DNA of 64,000 nucleotides from Candidatus Rokubacteria bacterium GWA2_70_23 (GTDB lineage: Bacteria > Methylomirabilota > Methylomirabilia > Rokubacteriales > CSP1-6): NCBI GenBank assembly GCA_001788395.1, contig MGBT01000221.1, positions 16,896 to 80,895 of the forward strand. Reading direction: 5' to 3'. This document shows positions 29,843 to 44,541 of this stretch, piece after piece; position 1 is the stretch's first letter; each line of letters opens with the position of its first letter. The translations under genes were made by a program, and so were the position numbers. The notes under the pieces were generated by a model. That model was not told the DNA's origin. It saw nothing but the letters and a program-made list of their open reading frames with translations, and searched no databases.

Positions 29843-31174
29843 GTGGAGCGCCGGTCGCACCAGACCCAGCTGCCCAAGGGCGTCAAGATCTACCTCCCCG
29901 ACGAGGCCGCGCAGAAGCGCGTCGTCGAGGAGCGCCTGCTGGGCGTCTTCCGCCGCTGGGGGTACCGCGAGGTGGTGACGCCCACCTACGAGTACTTCGA
30001 CGTGCTCTCCCAGGGGACGGACCACGACCTCCAGGAGGGCATGTTCAAGATGGTGGACCGCGAGTCGGGGCGGCTCCTGGCTCTCCGCGCGGACATCACG
30101 CCCCAGATCGCGCGCATCGTGGCCACGCGGATGCGGGACGAGCCCAAGCCCCTCCGTCTCGCGTACGTCACCAATGTCTTCCGGTACGACGAGCCTCAGG
30201 TGGGCCGCTACCGGGAGTTCTACCAGGCGGGCGTCGAGCAGGTGGGCCTGCCGAACCCGGAGGGCGATGCCGAGATGATCGCCATGACGGTGGAGTGCCT
30301 GCGCGCTCTCGGGCTCGACCAGTTCCAGCTCGACGTCGGGCAGACGGACTTCTTTCGCGGCATCCTCGAGGACCTCGCCGTGGACGAGACGACGGCGCGC
30401 CGGCTCCGCTCGGCGCTCTCGCGCAAGGACGTCTCGGCCCTCGAGCGGCGAGTGGAGGAGCTGGGCGCGCCGGCGGCCGTGACCGAGCTGCTCCTGGCGC
30501 TGCCCTCGCTGTACGGCCGCGGCGAGGTGATCGCGCGCGCCGAGCGGCTCGTGAAGAACGCCCGCTCGGAGGCGGCGCTCCGCAACCTGTCCGAGGTGTA
30601 CCGGCTGCTGGGGCTGTACGGCCTGGCCGACGCGGTGCTGCTCGATCTCGGCGAGGTGCGCGGCTTCGACTACTACTCCGGGGTGCACTTCGAGGCCTAC
30701 GTCACCGGGCTCGGGGCGGCGCTGGCGGGGGGCGGGCGCTACGACCAGATGCTGGGGCGCTTCGGCTACGACTGCCCGGCGACGGGCTTTGCCGTCGAGG
30801 TGGGGCGGGCGCTCCTGGCCATGGACTCCCAGGGTGCGGCGGCGGCGCTGCCCGGGCCGGACTTCTTCATCATCGACTTCACCGCGGACAAGACGCGAGC
30901 ACTGGCGCTCGCGCGCCGGTACCGCGATCTCGGCGCCGCGGTGGCGCGGGACATCATCAGTCGAGGGATCGAGGACTCCATCGCCCATGCGCGCCAGCAG
31001 CGCGCGCGCTGGGTGCTCGTGATCGGAGGAGGCCGGACCGAGCCCGACGAGGTGCGCGTGGTGGACCTGTCGGTGGATGAGGAGCGGACGTGTGCCGTCG
31101 CCGATCTGCTCGCCGATCCCGCGCGGCACTTCCCCGTATTCCGGCCCGAGAGCGGGAGTCGCAGCCATGCCTAA
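29843..31174 (+). CDS. hisZ: HisRS-like protein, probably ATP phosphoribosyltransferase regulatory subunit HisZ (possibly HisS)
   Basis: GTG start after RBS; class II aaRS motifs (FRYDEPQVGRYREFYQAGVE, GGGRYDQML) but GTRD replaced by GVKI; the 5' part of track ORF 29375 is antisense-like extension. Confidence 0.55.
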   Translation: MERRSHQTQLPKGVKIYLPDEAAQKRVVEERLLGVFRRWGYREVVTPTYEYFDVLSQGTDHDLQEGMFKMVDRESGRLLALRADITPQIARIVATRMRDEPKPLRLAYVTNVFRYDEPQVGRYREFYQAGVEQVGLPNPEGDAEMIAMTVECLRALGLDQFQLDVGQTDFFRGILEDLAVDETTARRLRSALSRKDVSALERRVEELGAPAAVTELLLALPSLYGRGEVIARAERLVKNARSEAALRNLSEVYRLLGLYGLADAVLLDLGEVRGFDYYSGVHFEAYVTGLGAALAGGGRYDQMLGRFGYDCPATGFAVEVGRALLAMDSQGAAAALPGPDFFIIDFTADKTRALALARRYRDLGAAVARDIISRGIEDSIAHARQQRARWVLVIGGGRTEPDEVRVVDLSVDEERTCAVADLLADPARHFPVFRPESGSRSHA

Positions 31175-32495
31175 CATCGTGGTGGTGGGCGCCCAGTGGG
31201 GCGACGAGGGCAAGGGGAAGGTCGTGGACGTGCTGGCCCCGCACGTGGACGTGGTGGTGCGCTACCAGGGCGGCAACAACGCGGGGCACACGGTGGTCGT
31301 GGGGAAGGAGAAGTTCGTGCTCCAGACCATCCCCTCGGGGATCCTCCACCGCGGCTGCCGCTGCGTGATCGGCTGCGGCGTCGTCATCAACCCGGCCTCG
31401 CTCATCGATGAGATGGAGGCGCTGGTGCGGCGGGGCGTCTCCCTGGACGGCAACCTCTACATCTCCAAGAACGCGCACCTCATCATGCCCTATCACCCGG
31501 CACTGGACCGGGCGGCGGAGTCCCAGGCCGGCAAGCGCCGCATCGGCACCACGGGCAAGGGCGTGGGGCCGGCCTATGCGGACAAGGCCGCGCGCGTGGG
31601 CATCCGCATGGCGGACCTCCTGGACGAGCAGCTCTTCCGGGACAAGCTCGAGTTCAACATCCGTCAGAAGAATCGGCTCTTGCGCGAGATCTACGATGCC
31701 GAGGAGTTCACGGTGGAGGGGATCCTCGGGCCGTACCTCCGCTACGCCGGGTGGCTGGCGCCCTACATCACGGACACGGCACTCCTGCTCTCGCGCTGGA
31801 TCGACGGCGGCGCCTCCGTGATGTTCGAGGGAGCGCAGGGCACCCTGCTGGATGTGGACCACGGGACCTACCCGTTCATCACCTCCTCCAGCACCACGGC
31901 GGGGGGCGCCTGCACCGGGACCGGGGTGCCGCCCACGAAGATCCACGGCGCGCTCGGCATCTCCAAGGCGTACTGCACGCGCGTGGGCGGCGGCCCGTTC
32001 CTGACGGAGGTCTCGGGCGACATCGCCGACCTCCTGCGCACCCGCGGCAACGAGTTCGGCTCGGTCACCGGCCGGCCCCGGCGCTGCGGCTGGGTGGACG
32101 CCGTCGGGCTCCGGTATGCCGCCCGCATCAACGGTCTCGACGCGTTCGCCATCACCAAGCTCGACGTGCTGGACGCCTGCGAGACGGTGAAGATCTGCGT
32201 GGGGCATCGGCACCGCGGCGAGGTCTTCACGGAATTCCCCGAGGAGGAGCGCATCTGGCACGAGGCGGTGCCCGTCTACGAGGAGCTGTCGGGATGGCAG
32301 ACCTCGACCCACGGCATGCAGGACTATGCCGAGCTGCCCACCAAGGCGCGGGAGTATCTCGAGCGGCTCTCCGAGATCGTCGGCGTCGGCATCGCGCTGG
32401 TCTCCACCGGCCCCGTCCGTGACGACACGATCATCGTCGGGGGCTCGGCGCTGCCCCGCTGGTTCCCGTCGCTCGGCAGCGCGGCCTCCCCGTAG
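31167..32495 (+). CDS. purA: Adenylosuccinate synthetase PurA
   Basis: [21 protein letters not shown] P-loop N-terminus; in frame within track ORF 31077; overlaps hisZ-like stop. Confidence 0.9.
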   Translation: [442 protein letters not shown]

Positions 32496-32567
32496 CGGGC
32501 GCTCGAGCCGCCCGTCCTGGACGGGGCTCTGCGCGGCGGGTAGGTTGGGCGCAATGGAGGGCTGGGT

Positions 32568-35480
32568 GTGACGTGTCCGCGGTGCCAGAGCGACAACCGC
32601 CCGGGAATCAAGTTCTGCGAGGAGTGCGGGGCCCGCCTGGCCCTCGCATGCCCCTCCTGCGGCGCCGAGGTCCTCCCGGACCGGAAGTTCTGCGGCTCTT
32701 GCGGCGGGGCCCTGGCCGAGAAGCCCGCCGACCGGGCCGCCTCGCCACGGGCCTACACCCCGAAGCACCTCGCCGAGAAGATCCTCGTCTCCAAGAGTGC
32801 GCTGGAGGGCGAGCGCAAGCAGGTCACCGTGCTCTTTGCCGATCTCAAGGGCTCCATGGAGCTGCTCGCCAACCGCGACCCGGAAGAAGCACGCCGGCTC
32901 CTGGACCCGGTCCTCGAGCGGATGATGGAGGCCGTCCACCGCTACGAGGGCACGGTGAACCAGGTCATGGGCGACGGGATCATGGCGCTCTTCGGGGCGC
33001 CGCTCGCCCACGAGGACCACGCGGTGCGCGCCTGCTATGCCGCGCTCCGGATGCAGGAGACGGTGGGGGGGTACGCCGAGGAGCTGCGACGGACCCAGGG
33101 GCTCGACGTCCAGATCCGCGTGGGCCTCAATTCCGGCGCGGTGGTGGTCCGCTCCATCGGCAACGACCTGCACATGGACTACACGGCCGTGGGGCAGACC
33201 ACGCACCTCGCCGCGCGCTTGGAGCAGCTCGCCCGTCCCGGGACGACGCTGATGACGGCCGACACCCTCCGGCTCGCCGAGGGCTATGTGGAGGTCAATC
33301 CGCTCGGGCCCGTGCCGGTGAAGGGCCTCGCCGATGCCGTGCAGGTCTATGAGATCGTGCGCGCGGGTCCGGTGCGCTCCCGGCTGCAGGCCGCCGCCGC
33401 CCGCGGACTCTCCCCCTTCGTGGGGCGCGATGGGGAGATCGACGTGCTGCGCCAGTCGCTGGAGCCAGTGCAGGCCGGCCACGGGCAGATCGAGACGCAG
33501 GTCCTCGCCGGGGAGCGCGGCGTCCACCGGCTGGCAAAGGCGCTCACGACCATCGAGGTGCCCGCCACGGTGCAGGCGGTGATCGCCTCGCGCATCGACC
33601 GGCTCGCCCCCGAGGAGAGGCGGCTCCTGCACGCCGCCTCCGTCATCGGCAAGGACGTGCCGCTGGTCCTCCTGCGCGCCGTGGCGGACCTGCCGGAGGA
33701 AGCCCTCAGCCAGAGCCTCATGCGGCTTCAGGCGGCCGAGTTCCTCTACGAGACGGGGCTGTACCCCGATCTCGGATACACCTTCACCCACGCGCTGACG
33801 CACGACGTGGCCTACGGCACGCTCCTCCAGGACCGCCGGCGCGGGCTCCACGCCCAGATCCTCCGGACCATCGAGCGCCTGCACCCCACCCGCCACGCCG
33901 AGCAGGCGGAGGTCCTCGCCGATCACGCCTTCCGCGGCGAGGCGTGGGACACGGCCGTGACGCACCTCCGCAAGGCCGGCGCCAAGGCGGCGGCGCGCTC
34001 CGCCAACGTGGAGGCCGTCGTGTATCTCGAGCGGGCGCTCACCGCGCTCGGGAAGCTGCCGGAGAGCCGCGAGACGACGGAACAGGGGATCGACGTGCGC
34101 CTGGAGCTGCGGCCCCCGCTGCTCCAGCTGGGCCATCTCCCGAAAGTGCTCGCGGTGTCGCAGCAGGCCGAGAACATGGCCAAGCTTATCGGCGACGAGG
34201 CGCGGCTGGCGCGCGTGTACAGCTACCTGATCAACTACCACTACCTCAAGGGCGAGCCGGAGATGGCCATCGCCTACGGCGAGCGCTGCCTGGCCATCGG
34301 CGAGGCCGGGGCCGACGCGGCGCTGCAGGCGATGGCGCGCGGCTATATGGGCTACAGCTATCACGCGCAGGGCCAGTACCGAGAGGCCGAGGCCGTCCTC
34401 GCCCGGAACGTCGAGAAGCTCGAGGCCTTGCGCGCGGCCGAGGGCGCCGGACCTCAGTCCGCGATCTCCTACGTGAGCTCGAGCGGCTGGTTCGCCTTCA
34501 CGCTGGCCGAGCTGGGGGACTTCGACCAGGCGCGCACCTATGCCGACATGGCCGAGCGGGCGGCGGAGGCCGAGCGCCACGCCTACGCCCAGGCGATCGC
34601 ATGGAGCCTCGGGGGGCTCGTGGCGCTACAGCGCGGGCATCTGGACCGGGCGCTGCATCTCCTGGAGAAGAGCCTCGAGACCTGCCGGAGCAAGCAGCTC
34701 ACGGTATGGCAGCCGATCCCCTCATCGCTGCTCGGGCTCACCCAGGTCCTGCTGGGCCGACACGACGAGGGGCTCTCCCTGCTGGAGGACGGCGTCGCGC
34801 GCACCGAGGCCCTCGGCGTGAAGGCGTACCTCGCGCTCTGGACGGCGCAGCTCGGCGAGGGGCTCGTCGCCGCCGGCCAGCCCTCCCGCGCGTTCGCGGC
34901 GGGCGAGCAAGCGCTCAGCCTCGCCATCGCCCACAAGGAGCGCGGCCACCAGGCCCGCGCGCTCCGGCTCCTGGGCGAGGTCGCCCTGCGTAGCGATCCG
35001 CCGGATCTGGCGAAGGCGGAGCAGGACTTCGCCCAGGCCCTCGCGCTGGCGGAGGAGCTCGGCATGCGCCCGCTCGTCGGTCGAATCCGCCTCGGGCTCG
35101 GCCAGCTCCACCTCGAGAGGGGGGACCGCGCCCAGGCCGAGGACCACCTGATCGCCGCGCTCGCCCTCCTCCGCGCGCTCGACATGCGCTTCTTCCTCGC
35201 GCAGGCGACAAGCGAGCTCAAGCGCCTCGGGCACATCTTCGTCGTGGCCCACCATAACCTCGGCCTCTACGAGTTCCTCAAGGAGAAGTTCGCCGGCGAT
35301 GGCGAGGTGACGGTGATCCTGGATCGGCGGCGCAGCGAGCGCCGGGGCGACGGGCAGCCTTCCGCCGCCGAGCGGGGCCGCGCCGAGCGCCGTTACCCCG
35401 GCTCGGGTGACGGCGCCCTGCGCCTGCGGGGCCTGGTCGTGCTCCCGGGCGAGGCGGGCTCACCGCCGGCGCGCTCCTAG
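32568..35480 (+). CDS. Multidomain signalling protein: double zinc-ribbon, class III adenylyl/guanylyl cyclase domain, degenerate STAND/ATPase remnant, TPR-like helical repeats
   Basis: CPRCQ...CEEC...CPSCG...CGSC zinc ribbons; VTVLFADLKGSMELL...VMGDGIMALFGAP cyclase core; FVGRDGEID... segment but no GxxxxGK[ST] anywhere in the 970 aa. Confidence 0.8.
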   Translation: MTCPRCQSDNRPGIKFCEECGARLALACPSCGAEVLPDRKFCGSCGGALAEKPADRAASPRAYTPKHLAEKILVSKSALEGERKQVTVLFADLKGSMELLANRDPEEARRLLDPVLERMMEAVHRYEGTVNQVMGDGIMALFGAPLAHEDHAVRACYAALRMQETVGGYAEELRRTQGLDVQIRVGLNSGAVVVRSIGNDLHMDYTAVGQTTHLAARLEQLARPGTTLMTADTLRLAEGYVEVNPLGPVPVKGLADAVQVYEIVRAGPVRSRLQAAAARGLSPFVGRDGEIDVLRQSLEPVQAGHGQIETQVLAGERGVHRLAKALTTIEVPATVQAVIASRIDRLAPEERRLLHAASVIGKDVPLVLLRAVADLPEEALSQSLMRLQAAEFLYETGLYPDLGYTFTHALTHDVAYGTLLQDRRRGLHAQILRTIERLHPTRHAEQAEVLADHAFRGEAWDTAVTHLRKAGAKAAARSANVEAVVYLERALTALGKLPESRETTEQGIDVRLELRPPLLQLGHLPKVLAVSQQAENMAKLIGDEARLARVYSYLINYHYLKGEPEMAIAYGERCLAIGEAGADAALQAMARGYMGYSYHAQGQYREAEAVLARNVEKLEALRAAEGAGPQSAISYVSSSGWFAFTLAELGDFDQARTYADMAERAAEAERHAYAQAIAWSLGGLVALQRGHLDRALHLLEKSLETCRSKQLTVWQPIPSSLLGLTQVLLGRHDEGLSLLEDGVARTEALGVKAYLALWTAQLGEGLVAAGQPSRAFAAGEQALSLAIAHKERGHQARALRLLGEVALRSDPPDLAKAEQDFAQALALAEELGMRPLVGRIRLGLGQLHLERGDRAQAEDHLIAALALLRALDMRFFLAQATSELKRLGHIFVVAHHNLGLYEFLKEKFAGDGEVTVILDRRRSERRGDGQPSAAERGRAERRYPGSGDGALRLRGLVVLPGEAGSPPARS

Positions 35481-35545
35481 CCGCCTTCCGCGCGCGGGCC
35501 CGGCGCGGACGCCGTGCCCCGGGCGCGTGATATCATCCCCCGCGT

Positions 35546-35621
35546 GAGCCGTTAGCTCAATCGGGAGAGCACCTGCCTTTTAAGCAGGGGGTCCCGGGTT
35601 CGATCCCCGGACGGCTCACCA
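35546..35621 (+). tRNA. tRNA-Lys (anticodon TTT)
   Basis: Cloverleaf folded by hand: 7-bp acceptor GAGCCGT/ACGGCTC, anticodon loop CTTTTAA, T-loop TTCGATC, encoded CCA. Confidence 0.85.
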
Positions 35622-35769
35622 TTGCTTCTCGCGGACTTCCGCGACACGCGCGTTACATCCCCCTACACCTGCAGCTCTCAGCCGCTCCTTCTGGTGCATG
35701 GACGACAGGATCGCTCAGGTTCCCGGCTGACGGAAGGGGCGACCCGGCAGTCGGGGCGACAGGACGGCG

Positions 35770-37704
35770 TCAGTCGGCGACGGTGGGCGGAGCGGCACCG
35801 ACCCGGGGCTCGGCGGCGACGGCGAGGGGGCGGGTGGGAGCCACCGGGCGCCGGCGCTCGAGGCGGTAGTCCCACGCGGCGAAGGCGACGAGCGCCACGC
35901 TGGTGGCGACGGACACGGCCAGGTTGGGCGAGATGGCGGCCAGCGCCGTGGCGGCCAGGAACGCGCGCTTGCCCCGGCCGAGCGGCGTGAACATGTGCCC
36001 GGCGATGGCCGCGCACAGGGACGCGATGCCGACGGCGGCGGAGGCGAAGGTGATGACCACCTCGGTCCACTCGCCGCGCATCAGCAGCGCTGGCTGGTAG
36101 ACGAACAGGAACGGCGCCAGGAAGCCGCCGATGGCGATGCGCGAGGCGTGGAGGCCGGTGATCATGGGCCTGGCGCCCGCGATCTGTGCTCCGGCGAAGG
36201 CGGTCACCGCCACCGGCGGCGTCACGTCGGCCAGGACCGCGTAGTAGAAGACGAACAGGTGCGCGGCCAGGATGTCGACGCCGAGCTTCTGCAGGGCGGC
36301 CCCGCCCACGGTGACGGCGAGGATGTAGGCCGGGGTGGTCGGGATACCGGTGCCGAGCACCGAGACGACGGCGAAGACCAGGAGGAGGGCGACGATCAGG
36401 TGGCCGCCCGACAGGTTGATGATCGCGCTGGAGAACGAGAGCGCGAAACCGGTGCGGCTTATGGCGGCGACGATGAGGCCAGACGCCGCGAGGACGGCGG
36501 CGATGATGACGCCCGAGCGCATGGACTCCTGCAGGGTGAAGTAGATGCGCCGGGGCGTCATCGGCTGCTCGCCCGCGAACCAGGAGACGACGATAGCCGT
36601 GAGGAAGCTGTAGAGGGCGGCCTTGGACGGCGAGTACCCCGCCTCCAGGAAGTAGACGATCGTCAGGAACGGCGAGAAGAGGAGCGCGCGCCGCAGCAGG
36701 CTGCCGAGCGGCGGGATGTCGGCGGTCATGGTGCCGATGGCCTGCCGGAGCGCCTCCCAGTGCACGGTGGCCATGATCGAGACGTAATAGAGGACGGCCG
36801 GCAGGGCGGCCGCCACGATGATCTTGGAGTACGGCACGCCGGTCAGCTCGGCCATGATGAAGGCGCCGGCGCCCATGATCGGCGGCATCAGCGGCCCCCC
36901 GCACGAGGCGGTGGCCTCGATGGCGCCCGCGATCTCCGGGCGGTAGCCGATCTTCTTCATCAGCGGGATGGTGAAGGTGCCCGTCGCGTAGCAGTCGGCC
37001 ACCGAGGAGCCGCTCACGGTGCCGTAGAGCGCCGAGGACAGCACGGCGACCTTGGCCGGCCCGCCGCGGTACCGGCCTGCCAGCGCGATGGAGATGTCCA
37101 TGAAGAACTGGCCGACGCCCGAGTGCAGCATGAAGGCGGCGAAGATGATGAAGATCATCAGCAGGTTGGACGAGATGCCGGTGAGCGTCCCCAGCACGCC
37201 CTCGTCGGCGTAGAGGAAGAACATCTCGATCAGCTTGGGGTAGCTGTAGGCGCGGGGCGAGTGCAGGAACCCCGGCAGCCAGGGCGCGGTGACGAGGTAG
37301 GCCATGAACACGAGGGTGGTGACGAAGAACCAGAACCCCACGGCGCGCCGCGCGGCCTCGAGCACCGCCAGCACGAGGAGGGTGCCAAGGATCACCTGTC
37401 CCGTGGCGACGGGGTGGACGCCTTCCCAGCGCTGGGTCAGCTCCTCGGCGTTCCGAATGACGTAGAGGGTGGGGGCGAGGGCGGCGACCACCCAGAGCAC
37501 GTCCACGGCGCTGACACGGTTGGCCGGCGACCGCTTGCCGGCGGGGAAGAGCAGGAAAGCGAGTGGCAGCAGGAACATGAGGTGGACCGCCCGCATCTCG
37601 CGCGGTTCCCAGGCCCCGGCGTACGCGGTCCAGATGTGGAACAGGGCGGCGGCGGCGGCCCAGCCGCCAACCGCCCCGCCCACCCGGCCCTGCAGACGGC
37701 GCAT
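35770..37704 (-). CDS. TAXI-type TRAP transporter fused permease subunit (DctQ-DctM fusion)
   Basis: 644-aa polytopic membrane protein beginning MRRLQGRVGG...; start 2 nt after the SBP stop; the upstream part of track ORF 35770..38643 is an artefactual in-frame extension. Confidence 0.8.
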   Translation of the reverse strand: MRRLQGRVGGAVGGWAAAAALFHIWTAYAGAWEPREMRAVHLMFLLPLAFLLFPAGKRSPANRVSAVDVLWVVAALAPTLYVIRNAEELTQRWEGVHPVATGQVILGTLLVLAVLEAARRAVGFWFFVTTLVFMAYLVTAPWLPGFLHSPRAYSYPKLIEMFFLYADEGVLGTLTGISSNLLMIFIIFAAFMLHSGVGQFFMDISIALAGRYRGGPAKVAVLSSALYGTVSGSSVADCYATGTFTIPLMKKIGYRPEIAGAIEATASCGGPLMPPIMGAGAFIMAELTGVPYSKIIVAAALPAVLYYVSIMATVHWEALRQAIGTMTADIPPLGSLLRRALLFSPFLTIVYFLEAGYSPSKAALYSFLTAIVVSWFAGEQPMTPRRIYFTLQESMRSGVIIAAVLAASGLIVAAISRTGFALSFSSAIINLSGGHLIVALLLVFAVVSVLGTGIPTTPAYILAVTVGGAALQKLGVDILAAHLFVFYYAVLADVTPPVAVTAFAGAQIAGARPMITGLHASRIAIGGFLAPFLFVYQPALLMRGEWTEVVITFASAAVGIASLCAAIAGHMFTPLGRGKRAFLAATALAAISPNLAVSVATSVALVAFAAWDYRLERRRPVAPTRPLAVAAEPRVGAAPPTVAD

Positions 37705-37706
37705 GA

Positions 37707-38687
37707 CTACTTCAGCAGGCCAGCTTCCTTGTAGGCGCGCTCGGCGCCTGGGTGCAGCGGCACGTTGCCGAGCCTGACGGCGTCCTTGGGGTCGAAGTCC
37801 TTGAAGGCCGGGTGCACCTTCCGCACGCCGTCGACGTTGGCCAGCAGCAGCTTCGTGAACTGGTAGATGGCGTCCGCCGGCGCGATCTTGGCGTTGGCCA
37901 CGATGGTGTTGGCCATGGCGATGGTCGGGATGTCGCGGTCGTTGTTGACGACGTCCTTGTAGGAGCCCTTCGGGATGACGCCCCGGCTCAGGCCGAACTG
38001 CTCGAGGTACTTGAGCAGGTCCTCGTCCATGGGCAGGATGCGCATCTTGCGGCCGAGCGAGGCTTCCTGCAGGGCGGCGGCGGGCACGGCCAGGTTCGGG
38101 ACCAGGATGTCGGCGTTGCGGTCGCGGAACTGGGTGACAAGGTCGGAGTAGGAGACGAAGATGACCTTGCCGCCGCGGCTGCGCACGTCGTTGTAGGACG
38201 TCTTGTAGAACTCGAAGATCTTCCGCATCACCCACTCGTCCGAGCCGCCCGGCGGCGTGGTGCCGATCTTGAGCGGCAGCTTCTTGTCGAACGCCTCGCG
38301 GATGGACTGTACGGGCAGGTCGTCGGCCACGGAGAACTGCACGTGGACGTAGCCGAGCCCGTTCATCACCAGCCGCATGTCGCCGTGCTTGTCCTTGTAC
38401 GGGTCCTGGCCGTTGTACGAGGCGGCGATGAAGGGCGGCAGCCCCCAGGCGATCTCGGTCTCCGCCTGCTGGATCTTGCTCATGTTCTGGATTCCGGCGC
38501 CGGGGATGACCTTGATGTTGAAGCTCGGGTCCTTGGACTTGAGGAGCTCCACGAACCCGCCGGCCTGCGCGTACCAGCCGCCGCCGACCTGCCCGGCGGT
38601 CCAGGTGAGCGTCTTCTGCTGTGCCGTCGCAGGCAGCGCCCACGCGGCCAGGGCAAACGCCAACAGCACTCCGATGGCTCGTCGCAT
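37707..38687 (-). CDS. TAXI-family TRAP transporter solute-binding protein
   Basis: MRRAIGVLLAFALAAWALPATAQQ signal peptide; 327 aa; RBS AAAGGAGG upstream; rest of track ORF 37707..39662 is an extension. Confidence 0.8.
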   Translation of the reverse strand: MRRAIGVLLAFALAAWALPATAQQKTLTWTAGQVGGGWYAQAGGFVELLKSKDPSFNIKVIPGAGIQNMSKIQQAETEIAWGLPPFIAASYNGQDPYKDKHGDMRLVMNGLGYVHVQFSVADDLPVQSIREAFDKKLPLKIGTTPPGGSDEWVMRKIFEFYKTSYNDVRSRGGKVIFVSYSDLVTQFRDRNADILVPNLAVPAAALQEASLGRKMRILPMDEDLLKYLEQFGLSRGVIPKGSYKDVVNNDRDIPTIAMANTIVANAKIAPADAIYQFTKLLLANVDGVRKVHPAFKDFDPKDAVRLGNVPLHPGAERAYKEAGLLK

Positions 38688-38698
38688 CACGTCCTCCT

Positions 38699-39835
38699 TT
38701 ATCGTCGCGTGCACTCCCTCAATGCGGCCTCGTCGACCTCGACGCCCAGGCCCGGGTCGTCGAGCGCCAGGATGGCGCCATCGGCGTACTGCACCGGGCG
38801 GCGGACCACGTCGCCCTTGAGCAGCAGCGGGCCGAACAGCTCGCAGCCCCACGTGACCGGCGCCGCCGCCAGCGCCACTTGCAGATAGGCGGCGGTGCCG
38901 AGCGAGGTCTCGATCATGCAGCCGACGTAGCAGCTCATGCCGGCCGCCTCGGCGATGCGGGCGATGGCCATGGTGCCCAGGATGCCGGCCGACTTGGTGA
39001 GCTTGAGGGCCAGGATCGACACGCCGCCGAGCCGCGCGATGGCGAGCGCCTCGTGGGGCGAGCCGCACGACTCGTCGGCCATCACCGGCACCGTCACCCG
39101 GCGCGCGATCTCCGCCATGCCGTCCAGGTCCCAGCGCGGCACCGGCTGCTCGACGAAGTCGAGATCGTAGGGCTCGAGCGCGCGGATGGCGGCGAGGGCG
39201 GTGGGCCGGTCCCAGCCCTGGTTGGCGTCCACGCGGAGCGAGACGCCGGGGCCGACCGCCTCGCGGATGCGCCGCACCCGCTCGACGTCGTGGGCGACCG
39301 GGTGCGCGGCCGTCTTGATCTTGAAGATGCGGTGGCCCAGTGCGACCTTCTGGCGCGCCTCCTCGATCTCGGCCTCGGGGCTCGTCACCGCGAGCGACCA
39401 CGACAGCGGCACGCGGTCGCGCACGCGGCCGCCCAGCAGGCGGTGGACGGGCACGCCGAGCGCCCGGCCGTTGAGGTCCCAGAGCGCCATCTCGACCGCC
39501 GCGCGGGCGAAGGGGTTGCCCTGCACCCGGCGCGCCATCTCCCGGCGCAGCGGCTCGATCTCCGCGGCGTCGCGGCCCACCAGCCACGGCGCCACGTAGC
39601 GCTCGATCACCGCCTGCACCGACTCCGCCGACTCCTCGCTCCAGGTGGGGCCGCCCAGGCACGCCGCCTCGCCCCAGCCCACGAGACCGCCGCGCGTCTC
39701 GATCCGCACGAAGGCGAAGTTGACGGCCTCCAGCGTGGTGAACGACATCTTGTGCGGCCGCTTGACCGGGATGTCGGCCAGCACCACGCGCACCTCGGCG
39801 ATGGTCAGGTCACTCGGCATCCGGCCCCTCGTCAT
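38699..39835 (-). CDS. Enolase-superfamily enzyme, MR/MLE subgroup (dipeptide epimerase / HpbD-like racemase-epimerase)
   Basis: KIKT (KxK), DLDFVEQP, MADES metal ligands and KLTKSAG second Lys; start may be the internal Met at 39820. Confidence 0.8.
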   Translation of the reverse strand: MTRGRMPSDLTIAEVRVVLADIPVKRPHKMSFTTLEAVNFAFVRIETRGGLVGWGEAACLGGPTWSEESAESVQAVIERYVAPWLVGRDAAEIEPLRREMARRVQGNPFARAAVEMALWDLNGRALGVPVHRLLGGRVRDRVPLSWSLAVTSPEAEIEEARQKVALGHRIFKIKTAAHPVAHDVERVRRIREAVGPGVSLRVDANQGWDRPTALAAIRALEPYDLDFVEQPVPRWDLDGMAEIARRVTVPVMADESCGSPHEALAIARLGGVSILALKLTKSAGILGTMAIARIAEAAGMSCYVGCMIETSLGTAAYLQVALAAAPVTWGCELFGPLLLKGDVVRRPVQYADGAILALDDPGLGVEVDEAALRECTRR

Positions 39836-40973
39836 GCGCCTTCGCCGCGCCGCGGGCGAAGCGCCCGGGGTCGAAGAGCGAGAGGTCGGCGGCGGGCTTG
39901 CCCTCCACCAGCCAGGCGGCCACGTGGCGCCCGGTGGCCGGCGAGTGCTGGAAGCCGTGGCCGCCGAAGCCGACGGCGAGAAAGAAGCCCTCGACCTCCG
40001 GCGCCCAGCCGATGATCGCGTGGTCGTCCGGCGTGAGCGGCCGCAGGCCTGCCCAGCCGCCGGCGATCTTCGCCTGCTCCAGCAGCGGGACGCGGTGGAC
40101 GGCCTTCGTCACCGCCTCCTCCACCATCGACCAGTCCATCGGCACCTCGACGTCCTCGCCGATGTCCTGCACGTCGCCGGGGCTGAGCAGGACCTGCTCC
40201 ATCTCCTTGCGGAAGTAGAAGCCACTGGCGCGGTCCGTGGTGAGCGGCACCGGCCCCGGGATCTCCGGGAACGGCTCGGTGTAGAAGATGTGCCGCCGCC
40301 GCGGGTGCACCGGCACCTCGGCCCCGGCCATCCGGCCCACGCGTGCCGCGGCCGGGCCGGCCGCGTTGACGACGATCGGCGCCGCGATGGCGCCGTTCGT
40401 GGTCGTCACGCCGGTCACCCGGCCCCCCGCGGTTGCGATGCCGGTGACCGTCACTCCCTCCACGATGCGCGCGCCCAGCCCGCGCGCGCGCCGGGCGAAG
40501 GCGTTGGTGACCTCGGCCGGGCCGGCCAGGCCGTCGTCGGGCCCCCACACGGCCGCCACGAGGTCGTCCACGCGGAGGGCGGGCACCAGCCGCTGCGCCT
40601 CGTCCGGCGCGATGACGCGGACGTCGACGCCGCAGCGCCGCTGCAGCGCCATGCGCTCCTCGAAGCCCTTGAGGTCGGCCGGGTCGGAGACGAGGAAGAG
40701 GTAGCCGATCTTCTTGTAGCCGGGATCGACGCCGAACTCCTCCTCGAACCGCTCGAACACCGCGATGGACTCCAGCGAGAAGCGCACCTCAGCCTCGGTG
40801 GGGAACTGGGCGCGGATGCCGCCGGCCGCCTTGCTGGTGGTGCCGCTGCCGACGGCCTCGCGCTCGATCACGACGACGTCACGCAGACCGCGACCGGCCA
40901 GATGGTAGGCGATGGAGCAGCCGACCACGCCGCCGCCGATGATCACCACGCTGGCGGTGCGGGGGACAGACAT
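39810..40973 (-). CDS. FAD-dependent oxidoreductase (DAO family; D-amino-acid / sarcosine oxidase-like)
   Basis: SVVIIGGGVVGCSIAYHLAGRG dinucleotide-binding N-terminus; start chosen at MSVPRTA (40973). Confidence 0.8.
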   Translation of the reverse strand: MSVPRTASVVIIGGGVVGCSIAYHLAGRGLRDVVVIEREAVGSGTTSKAAGGIRAQFPTEAEVRFSLESIAVFERFEEEFGVDPGYKKIGYLFLVSDPADLKGFEERMALQRRCGVDVRVIAPDEAQRLVPALRVDDLVAAVWGPDDGLAGPAEVTNAFARRARGLGARIVEGVTVTGIATAGGRVTGVTTTNGAIAAPIVVNAAGPAAARVGRMAGAEVPVHPRRRHIFYTEPFPEIPGPVPLTTDRASGFYFRKEMEQVLLSPGDVQDIGEDVEVPMDWSMVEEAVTKAVHRVPLLEQAKIAGGWAGLRPLTPDDHAIIGWAPEVEGFFLAVGFGGHGFQHSPATGRHVAAWLVEGKPAADLSLFDPGRFARGAAKAHDEGPDAE

Positions 40974-41178
40974 GACGGCAGGATGGTACACCACCTGCGC
41001 CCCCGGGCAACGGCCTCTTCCCGAACGGGTGCACGACACCAGATTGAGGGGTGTGCGAACACTCTTCGCTCCCTCGAGTCTCAGCCAAGCCCCGCCCGGG
41101 TTGCGCTAAGATGCGTCCTGGCGCAATGTTCCGGTCATGCTCAGCCCGAGACGCGGCTGAGGGCCACAGGAGGCTGAC

Positions 41179-43217: not shown

Positions 43218-43585
43218 AGCTCATCTTCCGCGGCTTCGCGGTGGCCGGCTGCGAGCCGGACGAGATGGGGATCGGGCCCGTGTTCGCGGTGCCGAAGCTC
43301 CTCAAGCGGCACGGGCTCACGGTGGACGATATCGACGTGTGGGAGCTGAACGAGGCCTTCGCCGTGCAGGTGGTCTACTGCCGCGACCGGCTCGGTCTCG
43401 ATCCCGACACGCTCAACGTCAACGGGGGCTCGGTCTCCATCGGCCATCCCTTCGGCATGACGGGCTCGCGGATGGTGGGCACCATCGCCAACGAGATGCT
43501 CCGGCGCCGGGCGCGCTACGGCGTGGTGACGATGTGCATCGGGGGCGGCCAGGGCGCAGCCGGCCTCTTCGAGGCCTGCCTGTAG
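43218..43585 (+). pseudogene. Remnant: C-terminal about 120 codons of acetyl-CoA C-acyltransferase (thiolase)
   Basis: ...MGIGPV...DIDVWELNEAFAVQ...NVNGGSVSIGHPFGMTGSRM...MCIGGGQGAAGLFE matches thiolase C-terminal domain; no N-terminal domain upstream. Confidence 0.6.
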
Positions 43586-43669
43586 GGACTCCTGGCGCTG
43601 GGGGTGGTTGTCACGGGTGCCCCCGTTTGGTATGATGCGCGTGCTTTCGCCCGCAGGGATGAGCGTTTC

Positions 43670-43748
43670 GACCCCGTCGTCTAGTCTGGCCAAGGACGCG
43701 ACCCTTTCAAGGTCGAGATCGCGGGTTCGAATCCCGCCGGGGTCACCA
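43670..43748 (+). tRNA. tRNA-Glu (anticodon TTC)
   Basis: Acceptor GACCCCG/CGGGGTC, anticodon stem CGACC/GGTCG with loop CTTTCAA, T-loop TTCGAAT, encoded CCA. Confidence 0.8.
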
Positions 43749-43772
43749 CTCTCCTCGTGGTTGGGGGGTTGC

Positions 43773-43994
43773 ATGGAAAGGCCGGGCATCCGTGAGCTGG
43801 TCGGGCGGGCGATGCTCGACAAGGAGTTCCTGGCCGAGCTCGTGCGCGATCCGTCGGCCGTGCTTGCCGGCTACGGCCTCGAGGCCGAGGAGCGTGCGGC
43901 GGTGATGAAGGCCGTGGCCCGCACCGGCAAGACGTCGGACGCGGAGCGGACTCGGGCACTGCAGACCATCATGATGAAGCGCTGGGCGACGTAG
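43773..43994 (+). CDS. Small protein (73 aa) resembling Nif11/NHLP-type leader domain
   Basis: ...AMLDKEFLAELVRDPSAVLAGYGLEAEERAAV... fits the DxxFxxxLxxDPxAxL..G leader motif of NHLP/Nif11 precursor families; no Cys-rich core or GG site. Confidence 0.45.
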   Translation: MERPGIRELVGRAMLDKEFLAELVRDPSAVLAGYGLEAEERAAVMKAVARTGKTSDAERTRALQTIMMKRWAT

Positions 43995-44034: not shown

Positions 44035-44541
44035 GTGGCCAAGCCGGCCGACCTCCCCTTCCTGCGGCAGGTGCTCCTGTTCAGGGACATCGCCGACCCG
44101 GAGCTGCTGGCCCTGTGGCCCTGGCTCCAGGAGCGGCGGCTGCGCGCGGGGGAGGTGCTCTTCCGGGAAGGCGATACCGGCAGCGAGATGTTCCTGATCC
44201 GGTCCGGGAGCGTGGTGATCTCCAAGCGCGTCACGGGGCGCGTCGAGCAGGTGCTGGCGCGGTTCGGGCCGGCCGACTTCTTCGGGGAGATGAGCCTCTT
44301 CGACCGGCTGCCGCGCTCGGCCACCGTGCAGGCCGACACCGACACCGTGCTCCTCGGCCTCACCGGCGACAACCTCGACCGGCTCATCGAGAGCAGCCCC
44401 CGCGCGGCCACCGCGTTCTTCTACCAGCTCGTCCAGGTGTTCATCAAGCGGCTCCGCGACTCGGGCGATCTCGTGGCGGAGGTGACGCGCTGGGGGCTCG
44501 AGGCCACGGGGCTCGACATCGAGCACACCTCGCCCGGATGA
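44035..44541 (+). CDS. Cyclic-nucleotide-binding domain protein (CRP/FNR effector domain only, no HTH)
   Basis: ...GEVLFREGDTGSEMFLIRSGSVVIS...FFGEMSLFDRLPRSATVQA... cNMP-binding beta-roll; 168 aa. Confidence 0.75.
   Translation: MAKPADLPFLRQVLLFRDIADPELLALWPWLQERRLRAGEVLFREGDTGSEMFLIRSGSVVISKRVTGRVEQVLARFGPADFFGEMSLFDRLPRSATVQADTDTVLLGLTGDNLDRLIESSPRAATAFFYQLVQVFIKRLRDSGDLVAEVTRWGLEATGLDIEHTSPG

Follow-up and report, generated by a model that had tools for sequence, protein, structure and literature searches.

Domain organization of the encoded protein

The window analyzed here, a 64-kb stretch (64,000 nucleotides) of contig MGBT01000221.1 from Candidatus Rokubacteria bacterium GWA2_70_23, carries at 32568..35480 on the forward strand an open reading frame (ORF) that starts with GTG and encodes a protein of 970 amino acids (aa). 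We describe this gene as an allele of a double zinc ribbon (DZR)-cyclase-STAND-tetratricopeptide repeat (TPR) gene from which the nucleotide-binding oligomerization domain (NOD) has been deleted. Its product is identical to OGK76098.1 from the same organism. The sequence on record departs from the window translation at two residues, 1 (Val instead of Met) and 7 (Arg instead of Gln). The gene neighbors are purA, a hisZ-like gene and transport and metabolic genes, with no effector or defense context among them.

The protein begins with a double zinc ribbon (residues 3-46, 32574..32705, forward strand as for all features of the gene; 46.2 bits in the Pfam search), followed by a class III nucleotidyl cyclase domain (residues 83-261, 32814..33350) that was recognized as Guanylate_cyc (PF00211) at 78.7 bits, above a cut-off of 21.9, and by alignment to PDB structures. 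An initial annotation made from the sequence alone had singled out the zinc ribbon as notable; the ribbon is real, but it is a family-wide trait rather than a peculiarity of this protein, PF12773 being given for most homologs among the matches listed. Residues 283-307 (33414..33488) are a remnant of the NTPase domain, namely its N-terminal helix alpha0, FVGRDGEIDVLRQSLEPVQAGHGQ, which in full-length relatives is normally followed by strand beta1 and the Walker A loop. Here it ends at the deletion junction (33488..33489, between GGGCAG and ATCGAG), beyond which alignment to the orthologs places the last turn of the helical domain and the winged-helix region (residues 308 to ~420, 33489..33827). 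This region is homologous to the sequence that follows the helical domain in the orthologs and keeps the FTHALTHDVAY motif conserved in the family; the models of the deleted and of the full-length protein both give it a fold of low confidence. The TPR sensor array (residues ~420-885, 33828..35222) was modeled with pLDDT values of 85-98 and is matched by TPR_12 (74.4 bits) and TPR_MalT at residues ~590-880. The C-terminal tail of ~85 residues (residues 886-970, 35223..35477), with the pattern LGHxFVVA...VxVxLDRR..ERR...ERR, belongs to no Pfam family but is conserved and present in all relatives. It is specific to the family and rich in DRR/ERR, residues G888, D919, R920, R921, R941 and R942 are invariant in the alignment with family relatives, and the model shows it as a small alpha/beta unit, after which comes an Arg-rich stretch of low confidence.

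A Pfam search of the 970-aa protein down to E<=1 returned neither AAA_16, NB-ARC, AAA_22 nor any other P-loop family, and the Walker A pattern GxxxxGK[ST], also in the relaxed form [AG]xxxxG[KR][ST], has zero occurrences across its whole length. The domain and motif scans thus confirm the initial annotation of a cyclase/TPR protein without a P-loop; no intact AAA or NB-ARC domain that could have overturned the deletion reading was found, and that reading stands.

An in-frame gap of 232 codons relative to full-length orthologs

We searched 5.8 billion proteins for homologs, which gave more than 8,000 hits, and examined the 120 clusters listed, the window protein's own among them. In 119/119 of the other clusters the proteins are ~1,120-1,240 aa long and carry PF13191 AAA_16, leaving the window protein's own cluster as the sole one among the 120 matches listed that lacks this domain. 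Aligned to the 1,202-aa homolog P0002, the window protein is 93% identical outside a single clean block of 232 residues that is missing between GHGQ307 and I308ETQ (its identity to a further full-length homolog, P0003, is 84%), and at the DNA level the gap measures exactly 696 nt, in frame. In orthologs the gap contains MVAVVGEPGVGKS (Walker A), LVLVFENLQWID (Walker B region) and TEGNPFFIEEGVRML. For the three closest relatives, P0002, P0130 (MEK7446549.1) and P0131 (MBI3106415.1), GEPGVGKS (Walker A), LVLVFENLQWID and TEGNPFF all fall within it, and among 74 full-length relatives conservation is 90% or higher in the Walker A, in the Walker B region and in GNPFFLEE. The deleted segment was looked for elsewhere in the 64-kb window and was not found.

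The in-frame loss of a P-loop NTPase module, as proposed in the initial annotation, is therefore supported by full-length positional orthologs that differ by one 232-codon gap, and its extent is now delimited, the earlier estimate of 120-150 missing residues having been too low. The string that had been placed at the Walker A position, FVGRDGEIDVLRQSLEPVQAGHGQIETQVLAGERGVHRL, was located at residues 284-322 (33417-33533). VLAGERGVHRL does seem to stand at that position, yet it is native to sequence lying 232 residues further downstream. Likewise, the sequence described as an FVGR-type linker is present but constitutes no separate linker: the AAA_16 profile covers residues 283-469 in P0002, and it is the first ~25 of these residues, helix alpha0, that survive in the window protein.

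In the AlphaFold model of P0003, helix alpha0 occupies residues 288-302, strand beta1 307-313 and the last strand of the nucleotide-binding domain (NBD) 487-492, followed by a three-helix bundle at 497-541 (pLDDT 80-93). Judged by these positions in the model, the deleted block 308-539 corresponds almost exactly to the NBD plus the helical domain (HD), and includes the Walker B strand and the GxP motif of the helical domain (TEGNPFF in this family). The best PDB fold match of the P0003 model was 6mfv, the structure of PH0952, which is the archetype of STAND ATPases that have a TPR sensor (E 3.8e-11, 844 aligned columns), with MalT domain III and Avs3 as further matches, and a sequence search of the PDB returned no sequence-detectable solved homolog of the NOD. 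AlphaFold predicted the cyclase and winged-helix regions poorly in the deleted and full-length proteins alike, so the low pLDDT around the junction is no sign that the deletion causes misfolding. By its sequence, the window protein is a descendant of a STAND gene in terms of orthology, but one without the Walker A, Walker B and helical domain that define a STAND NTPase.

The deletion allele in independent records

DNA records carrying the deletion were found through members of the window protein's cluster; the allele was not among the matches listed by scans of genomes and metagenomes. An identical junction occurs in five DNA sequences from separate records (the window and loci L164-L167), comprising three GW* metagenome-assembled genome (MAG) assemblies, one ENA scaffold and one k141 ENA assembly. 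L164 and L167, the only ones of sufficient length for a wider comparison, show 99.7-99.9% identity with the window across 17-21 kb and have single-nucleotide polymorphisms (SNPs) of their own. At the protein level, the 970-aa form is on record in eight distinct sequences that vary at five internal positions and at N-terminal residues 1 and 7, and that derive from three GW* Rokubacteria MAGs, a third-party reassembly, and JGI and ENA contigs.

An assembly or binning artifact, in which the 696-bp gap would reflect a mis-join of reads from paralogs, is conceivable in principle since Rokubacteria have many paralogs of this family, several of them in a single MAG, and such redundancy can mislead short-read assemblers; the 5' and 3' parts of the gene also differ in divergence (see below). 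We nevertheless consider such an artifact very improbable. An identical junction accompanied by private SNPs in separate records largely rules it out, and the eight recorded variants and the collinear flanks of L164 and L167 speak against it as well. The deletion allele is real.

Two contigs, L162 (from MAG JACPUB01) and L163 (a 'Hain' contig), carry a 1,202-aa full-length gene directly after the hisZ-like gene and purA. The spacer between purA and the cyclase gene measures 72 bp in the window, L162 and L163, and the flanks of both contigs are 97-98% identical to the window DNA. The closest relatives, P0002, P0130 and P0131, also 1,202 aa long, likewise lie at this place, behind hisZ-like and purA. 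Given the shared position and flank identity, L162 and L163 are orthologs at the conspecific level, and the deletion is a structural polymorphism within one species-level lineage. The full-length positional orthologs come from other aquifers, the window population being one of groundwater. Of 153 fetched relatives that were surveyed, 148 retain the NOD; four of the others carry the present deletion allele, and one (L009) is another NOD-less copy.

Mosaic divergence and an insert beside the deletion

Relative to the full-length orthologs, the stretch at 33500..35677 shows raised divergence (~94% identity, against ~98% in both flanks), its left edge falling on the deletion junction or shortly past it. 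Identity between the window and L163 is 98.2% from 29182 to the junction, 94.0% from the junction to 35677, and back to 98.6-98.7% past a 5.4-kb insert described below. A change-point model, in which divergence steps from 0.8% to 5.4%, beats a uniform rate by a delta logL of 58, and places the change at 33711 by maximum likelihood (support 33446-33833), within ~220 bp of the junction. Synonymous divergence (dS) to L163 steps too, from 0.007 in the cyclase to 0.17 in the TPR part, so that relaxed protein constraint is not the cause.

The two parts of the gene also yield discordant trees, the 5' part of the short allele being sister to L163 and the 3' part falling outside all three full-length orthologs. 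With L014 as the outgroup, fixed differences are nearly absent from the 5' part (1 synonymous and 2 nonsynonymous changes on the window branch against 0 and 2 in the full-length clade), and the 3' part has 24 synonymous and 21 nonsynonymous changes on the window side against 22 and 23 for the three full-length orthologs. These trees also bear on whether the short form might be ancestral, as a separate cyclase-TPR family whose longer relatives gained the ATPase, or might hide a cryptic, divergent P-loop. Nothing beyond the bare architecture favors either version, and we regard them as having a negligible probability. The 5' part nests among full-length orthologs (cyclase dS of 0.007 to L163), full-length forms are seen in outgroup L014 and in every more distant relative among the matches listed and loci fetched, ~25 AAA_16 residues and the winged-helix part of the NOD persist as remnants, and there are no residues left to form a P-loop. 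Phylogeny and domain searches together rule out both versions.

Directly downstream of the divergent stretch lies a lineage-specific insert of 5.4 kb (35678..41059, reverse strand), identified by comparison with L163 and L014 and standing in place of ~127 nt of the L163 locus. It holds four genes, all on the reverse strand: a fused TRAP permease (35770-37704), a TAXI binding protein (37707-38687), an MR_MLE-family enzyme (38699-39820) and a DAO oxidoreductase (39810-40973). The insert is found in every deletion-allele contig long enough to show it and is absent from both L163 and outgroup L014, which indicates a gain in the window lineage. Its boundaries showed chance matches only, with no terminal repeats or target-site duplications, and no mobility genes were found within it.

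At the deletion breakpoints, we found a microhomology of 2 nt (AT) in comparison with the close orthologs, and of 5 nt (GATCG) in the outgroup state, in which codon 308 is ATC; the deletion probably arose through a microhomology-mediated illegitimate join. A single illegitimate recombination event could have produced the deletion together with the divergent stretch and the insert. In such an event, foreign DNA would be imported with a homology anchor on the right and an illegitimate join on the left, the latter being the deletion junction; its left end would produce the deletion, and the same event would deliver the gene's divergent 3' part together with the four-gene insert. Two results count against this link and leave it only suggestive: the support interval of the change-point only just reaches the junction (33489; delta logL -2.1), and no donor of the divergent 3' tract and insert was found among 167 fetched loci. 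Alternatively, the region could be an old deletion-plus-insert haplotype whose interior was shielded from homogenizing recombination by the two indels.

Residues of the cyclase domain

The cyclase domain matches the PDB structures of Cya2 (2w01) and CyaB (3r5g) at E ~1e-26, and in the alignment to both its metal-binding aspartates are D92 (FADLKG) and D136 (MGDGIM). Arg217 and Lys252 are present, and Thr206, at another key catalytic position, is retained. Two positions depart from the canonical residues: Gln132 stands at the substrate-specifying Lys position (NQVMGD vs DKFVGD in CyaB), and His213 at the transition-state Asn position (GQTTHLAARLE vs GREVNLASRLE). All seven residues (D92, Gln132, D136, Thr206, His213, R217 and K252) are invariant across 75 family sequences. 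Gln132 and His213 are therefore family traits, and a result of neither decay nor the deletion. As far as these alignments tell, the domain is a class III cyclase with non-canonical residues at two positions.

A few kilobases downstream, the window encodes a 168-aa cyclic-nucleotide-binding protein (44035-44541; 84.5 bits), which is kept in L163, L164 and L167 and could be a receptor for the cyclase product. Adjoining it is a small ORF (43608-43994), also kept in L163, with a sub-threshold match to Frankia_peptide (resembling the precursor of a ribosomally synthesized and post-translationally modified peptide; 32.7 vs 48 bits).

Consequences of the deletion and selection on the allele

The active sites of class III cyclases form at a dimer interface. 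In STAND proteins, the NOD holds ADP at rest, a state kept by autoinhibitory NBD-arm and NBD-sensor contacts; an inducer at the sensor opens the NOD and ATP replaces ADP, upon which the ATP-loaded proteins multimerize head-to-tail and the effector is activated (PMC6468293). In the full-length family, such inducer-triggered, ATP-dependent assembly would bring the cyclase domains together. Lacking Walker A, Walker B and the helical domain, the window protein would support neither nucleotide binding nor assembly of this kind, so that, going by the STAND mechanism, the TPR sensor would no longer be coupled to activation of the cyclase. Any remaining cyclase activity would be basal, arising from spontaneous dimerization. 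We favor, with moderate confidence, the interpretation that the gene is a switch-dead, loss-of-regulation allele whose product is either inert or a basal cyclase blind to its signal. Such an allele is probably tolerated in a paralog-rich family, and may be on its way to becoming a pseudogene.

Several observations weigh against this interpretation, and most of them also speak for a functional neomorph, a NOD-less protein kept by selection whose cyclase works without the ATP switch. Such a protein could be constitutively active through loss of autoinhibition, could be gated by the TPR array directly, or could act as a decoy or dominant negative that titrates the inducer or paralogous partners; the autoinhibitory contacts of the NBD (PMC6468293) imply that removing it could in principle free the effector. 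The frame stays open through all 970 codons, free of stops and frameshifts, and terminates at the stop codon used by the orthologs, and the cyclase, TPR and tail residues are conserved as in the family. The deletion follows two structural domains almost exactly, which would have the look of a tolerated modular change. The allele is common to all sampled members of the population and is apparently fixed. On the window-specific 3' branch, the 24 synonymous and 21 nonsynonymous changes correspond to a nonsynonymous-to-synonymous rate ratio (omega) of ~0.30 (p = 6e-5 vs neutrality), with 18 synonymous vs 8 nonsynonymous changes in the TPR part. A deletion as old as this branch would mean that selection has kept the truncated protein.

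We regard such a neomorph as the main alternative, possible if doubtful. The purifying-selection signal may predate the deletion, which perhaps occurred only at the tip of the branch, and would do so wholly if import of the 3' tract coincided with the deletion. Pairwise omega to the orthologs (0.36-0.37, compared with 0.31-0.51 between full-length alleles) is uninformative, given the mosaic structure of the gene and a divergence that may mostly be older than the deletion. Polymorphism that arose after it, 4 synonymous and 4 nonsynonymous changes among five sequences (p = 0.12 vs neutrality), is powerless either way, and a McDonald-Kreitman-style comparison with ten flanking genes (3/4 vs 5/7, Fisher p = 1) shows no difference from them but has no power; the population is too young for such tests. 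Moreover, the architecture occurs in 1/120 clusters among the matches listed and in no other intact gene in the 153 fetched loci, the sole other NOD-less copy among these (L009) is a pseudogene, and a motif conserved upstream of the gene is mutated in the window lineage. A more specific version, in which selection has retained a switchless STAND cyclase with its zinc-ribbon and cyclase head regulated directly by the TPR array, or an inducer decoy, with the 3' tract as an old, indel-shielded haplotype and the omega of ~0.3 accrued after the deletion, appears unlikely.

An open frame is by itself weak evidence of function at this locus. On the opposite strand, an antisense ORF of 1,207 aa (30957-34580, reverse strand) spans purA and the cyclase gene, and is almost certainly spurious, an artifact of the 72% G+C content.

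Other losses were observed elsewhere. In L009 (10001-13898; another Rokubacteria MAG), decayed copies of the family are clustered: a C-terminal fragment, the NOD-less copy, and a 227-aa ORF that joins residues 1-103 to 1009-1119. The NOD-less paralog lacks reference residues 285-531 (junction GLTRF/EESVR) and contains two in-frame stops and a frameshift; it is visibly a pseudogene that arose by an independent deletion. Internal deletions thus recur in the DZR-cyclase-STAND-TPR family.

The window lineage carries a second deletion, of ~854 bp (L163 10237-11090), at window 43218-43220, through which a nearby thiolase loses its start and N-terminal domain. What remains is an ORF at 43241-43585 encoding a 114-aa Thiolase_C fragment, so that this deletion is clearly inactivating.

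In the spacer upstream of the cyclase gene, inspection by eye revealed a motif, TTGAC(G/C)-17 nt-TAGG(T/C)T, that is conserved in L163, L162, L001 and outgroup L014. A T to G change at window 32519 turns it into TGGACG in 5/5 deletion alleles, which may weaken a putative promoter; a consensus promoter scan of the spacer called none in either the window or L163. Taken together, the L009 pseudogene, the thiolase deletion and the change in the TTGAC motif point towards decay.

Comparison with known systems

The nearest comparison is with the full-length orthologs P0002, P0130 and P0131, Rokubacteria/NC10 MAG proteins annotated as 'AAA family ATPase' or 'adenylate/guanylate cyclase domain-containing protein'. 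They share with the window gene its locus, 72-bp spacer, zinc ribbon, cyclase residues, winged-helix region, TPR array, tail and stop codon. The window allele differs in having lost residues 308-539, in 3' DNA that is ~6% diverged (vs ~2% in the 5' part), and in the 5.4-kb insert after the gene.

The full-length family shows the same NBD-HD-winged-helix domain (WHD)-(arm)-TPR plan as PH0952 (6mfv) and MalT (PMC6468293, PMC4381067). Compared with these, the window protein keeps the half made up of the putative WHD and the TPR array but lacks the NBD and HD, so that an ADP/ATP switch would be inoperable, and it carries as its effector an N-terminal class III cyclase, together with a zinc ribbon, in place of a DNA-binding domain.

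Among cyclases, the Mycobacterium tuberculosis proteins Rv0386, Rv1358 and Rv2488c combine a class III cyclase, a MalT-type ATPase, TPRs and a LuxR helix-turn-helix (HTH), and the ATPase of Rv0386-type cyclases has been noted as unstudied (bioRxiv 10.1101/2024.03.06.583649). One such cyclase, Rv2488c in the wording of that preprint, has a Gln-Asn pair for the canonical substrate-specifying residues (bioRxiv 10.1101/2024.03.06.583649). The full-length family resembles the Rv0386 type in its N-terminal class III cyclase fused to a STAND ATPase and TPRs, and in the Gln at the Lys position. It differs in its additional N-terminal double zinc ribbon and in Thr206 and His213 at other key positions, and the window allele also in being without the ATPase. 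The Gln-Asn pair itself is said, by Castro et al. in 2005, to belong to Rv0386.

Three further assignments were considered and rejected. No HTH family was among the Pfam matches at E<=1 in the 970-aa protein, ruling out a LuxR regulator of the Rv0386 type. The best NCBIfam match, the TOMM system kinase/cyclase fusion TIGR03903, aligned residues 313-835 to model positions 741-1255, covering the helical region after the NOD and the TPR array, but its score of 174.7 bits lies below the 705.75 cut-off and no kinase domain was matched. For Pycsar, PADLOC gave only a generic similarity to the PycC profile (E 2e-21), no better than the Pfam cyclase match.

What the allele means depends on whether it is functional. 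If so, conspecific full-length and NOD-less alleles would provide a natural experiment on the part that the STAND ATPase core plays for an enzymatic effector, a question little studied in bacteria, with an effector that, unlike a transcription factor or a death domain, is a cyclase needing dimerization. If it is non-functional, it would represent ordinary birth-and-death turnover in a very large, uncharacterized Rokubacteria/NC10 sensor-cyclase family, and a caution that a 970-codon open frame at 72% G+C tells little about function. A specialist would not be much surprised by an in-frame deletion in one population of a paralog-rich family. The family, which combines a zinc ribbon, a Gln/Thr/His cyclase, a STAND-TPR module and an unannotated tail, perhaps merits more attention than the allele.

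Natural STAND derivatives that keep effector and/or sensor parts have a precedent in the truncated NLRs of plants and animals that lack the NB-ARC core, some of which are conserved and have demonstrated regulatory roles. The window case differs from these in being a single young allele, and what is new here is such a young, strain-level, NOD-deleted allele of a large uncharacterized STAND-cyclase family.

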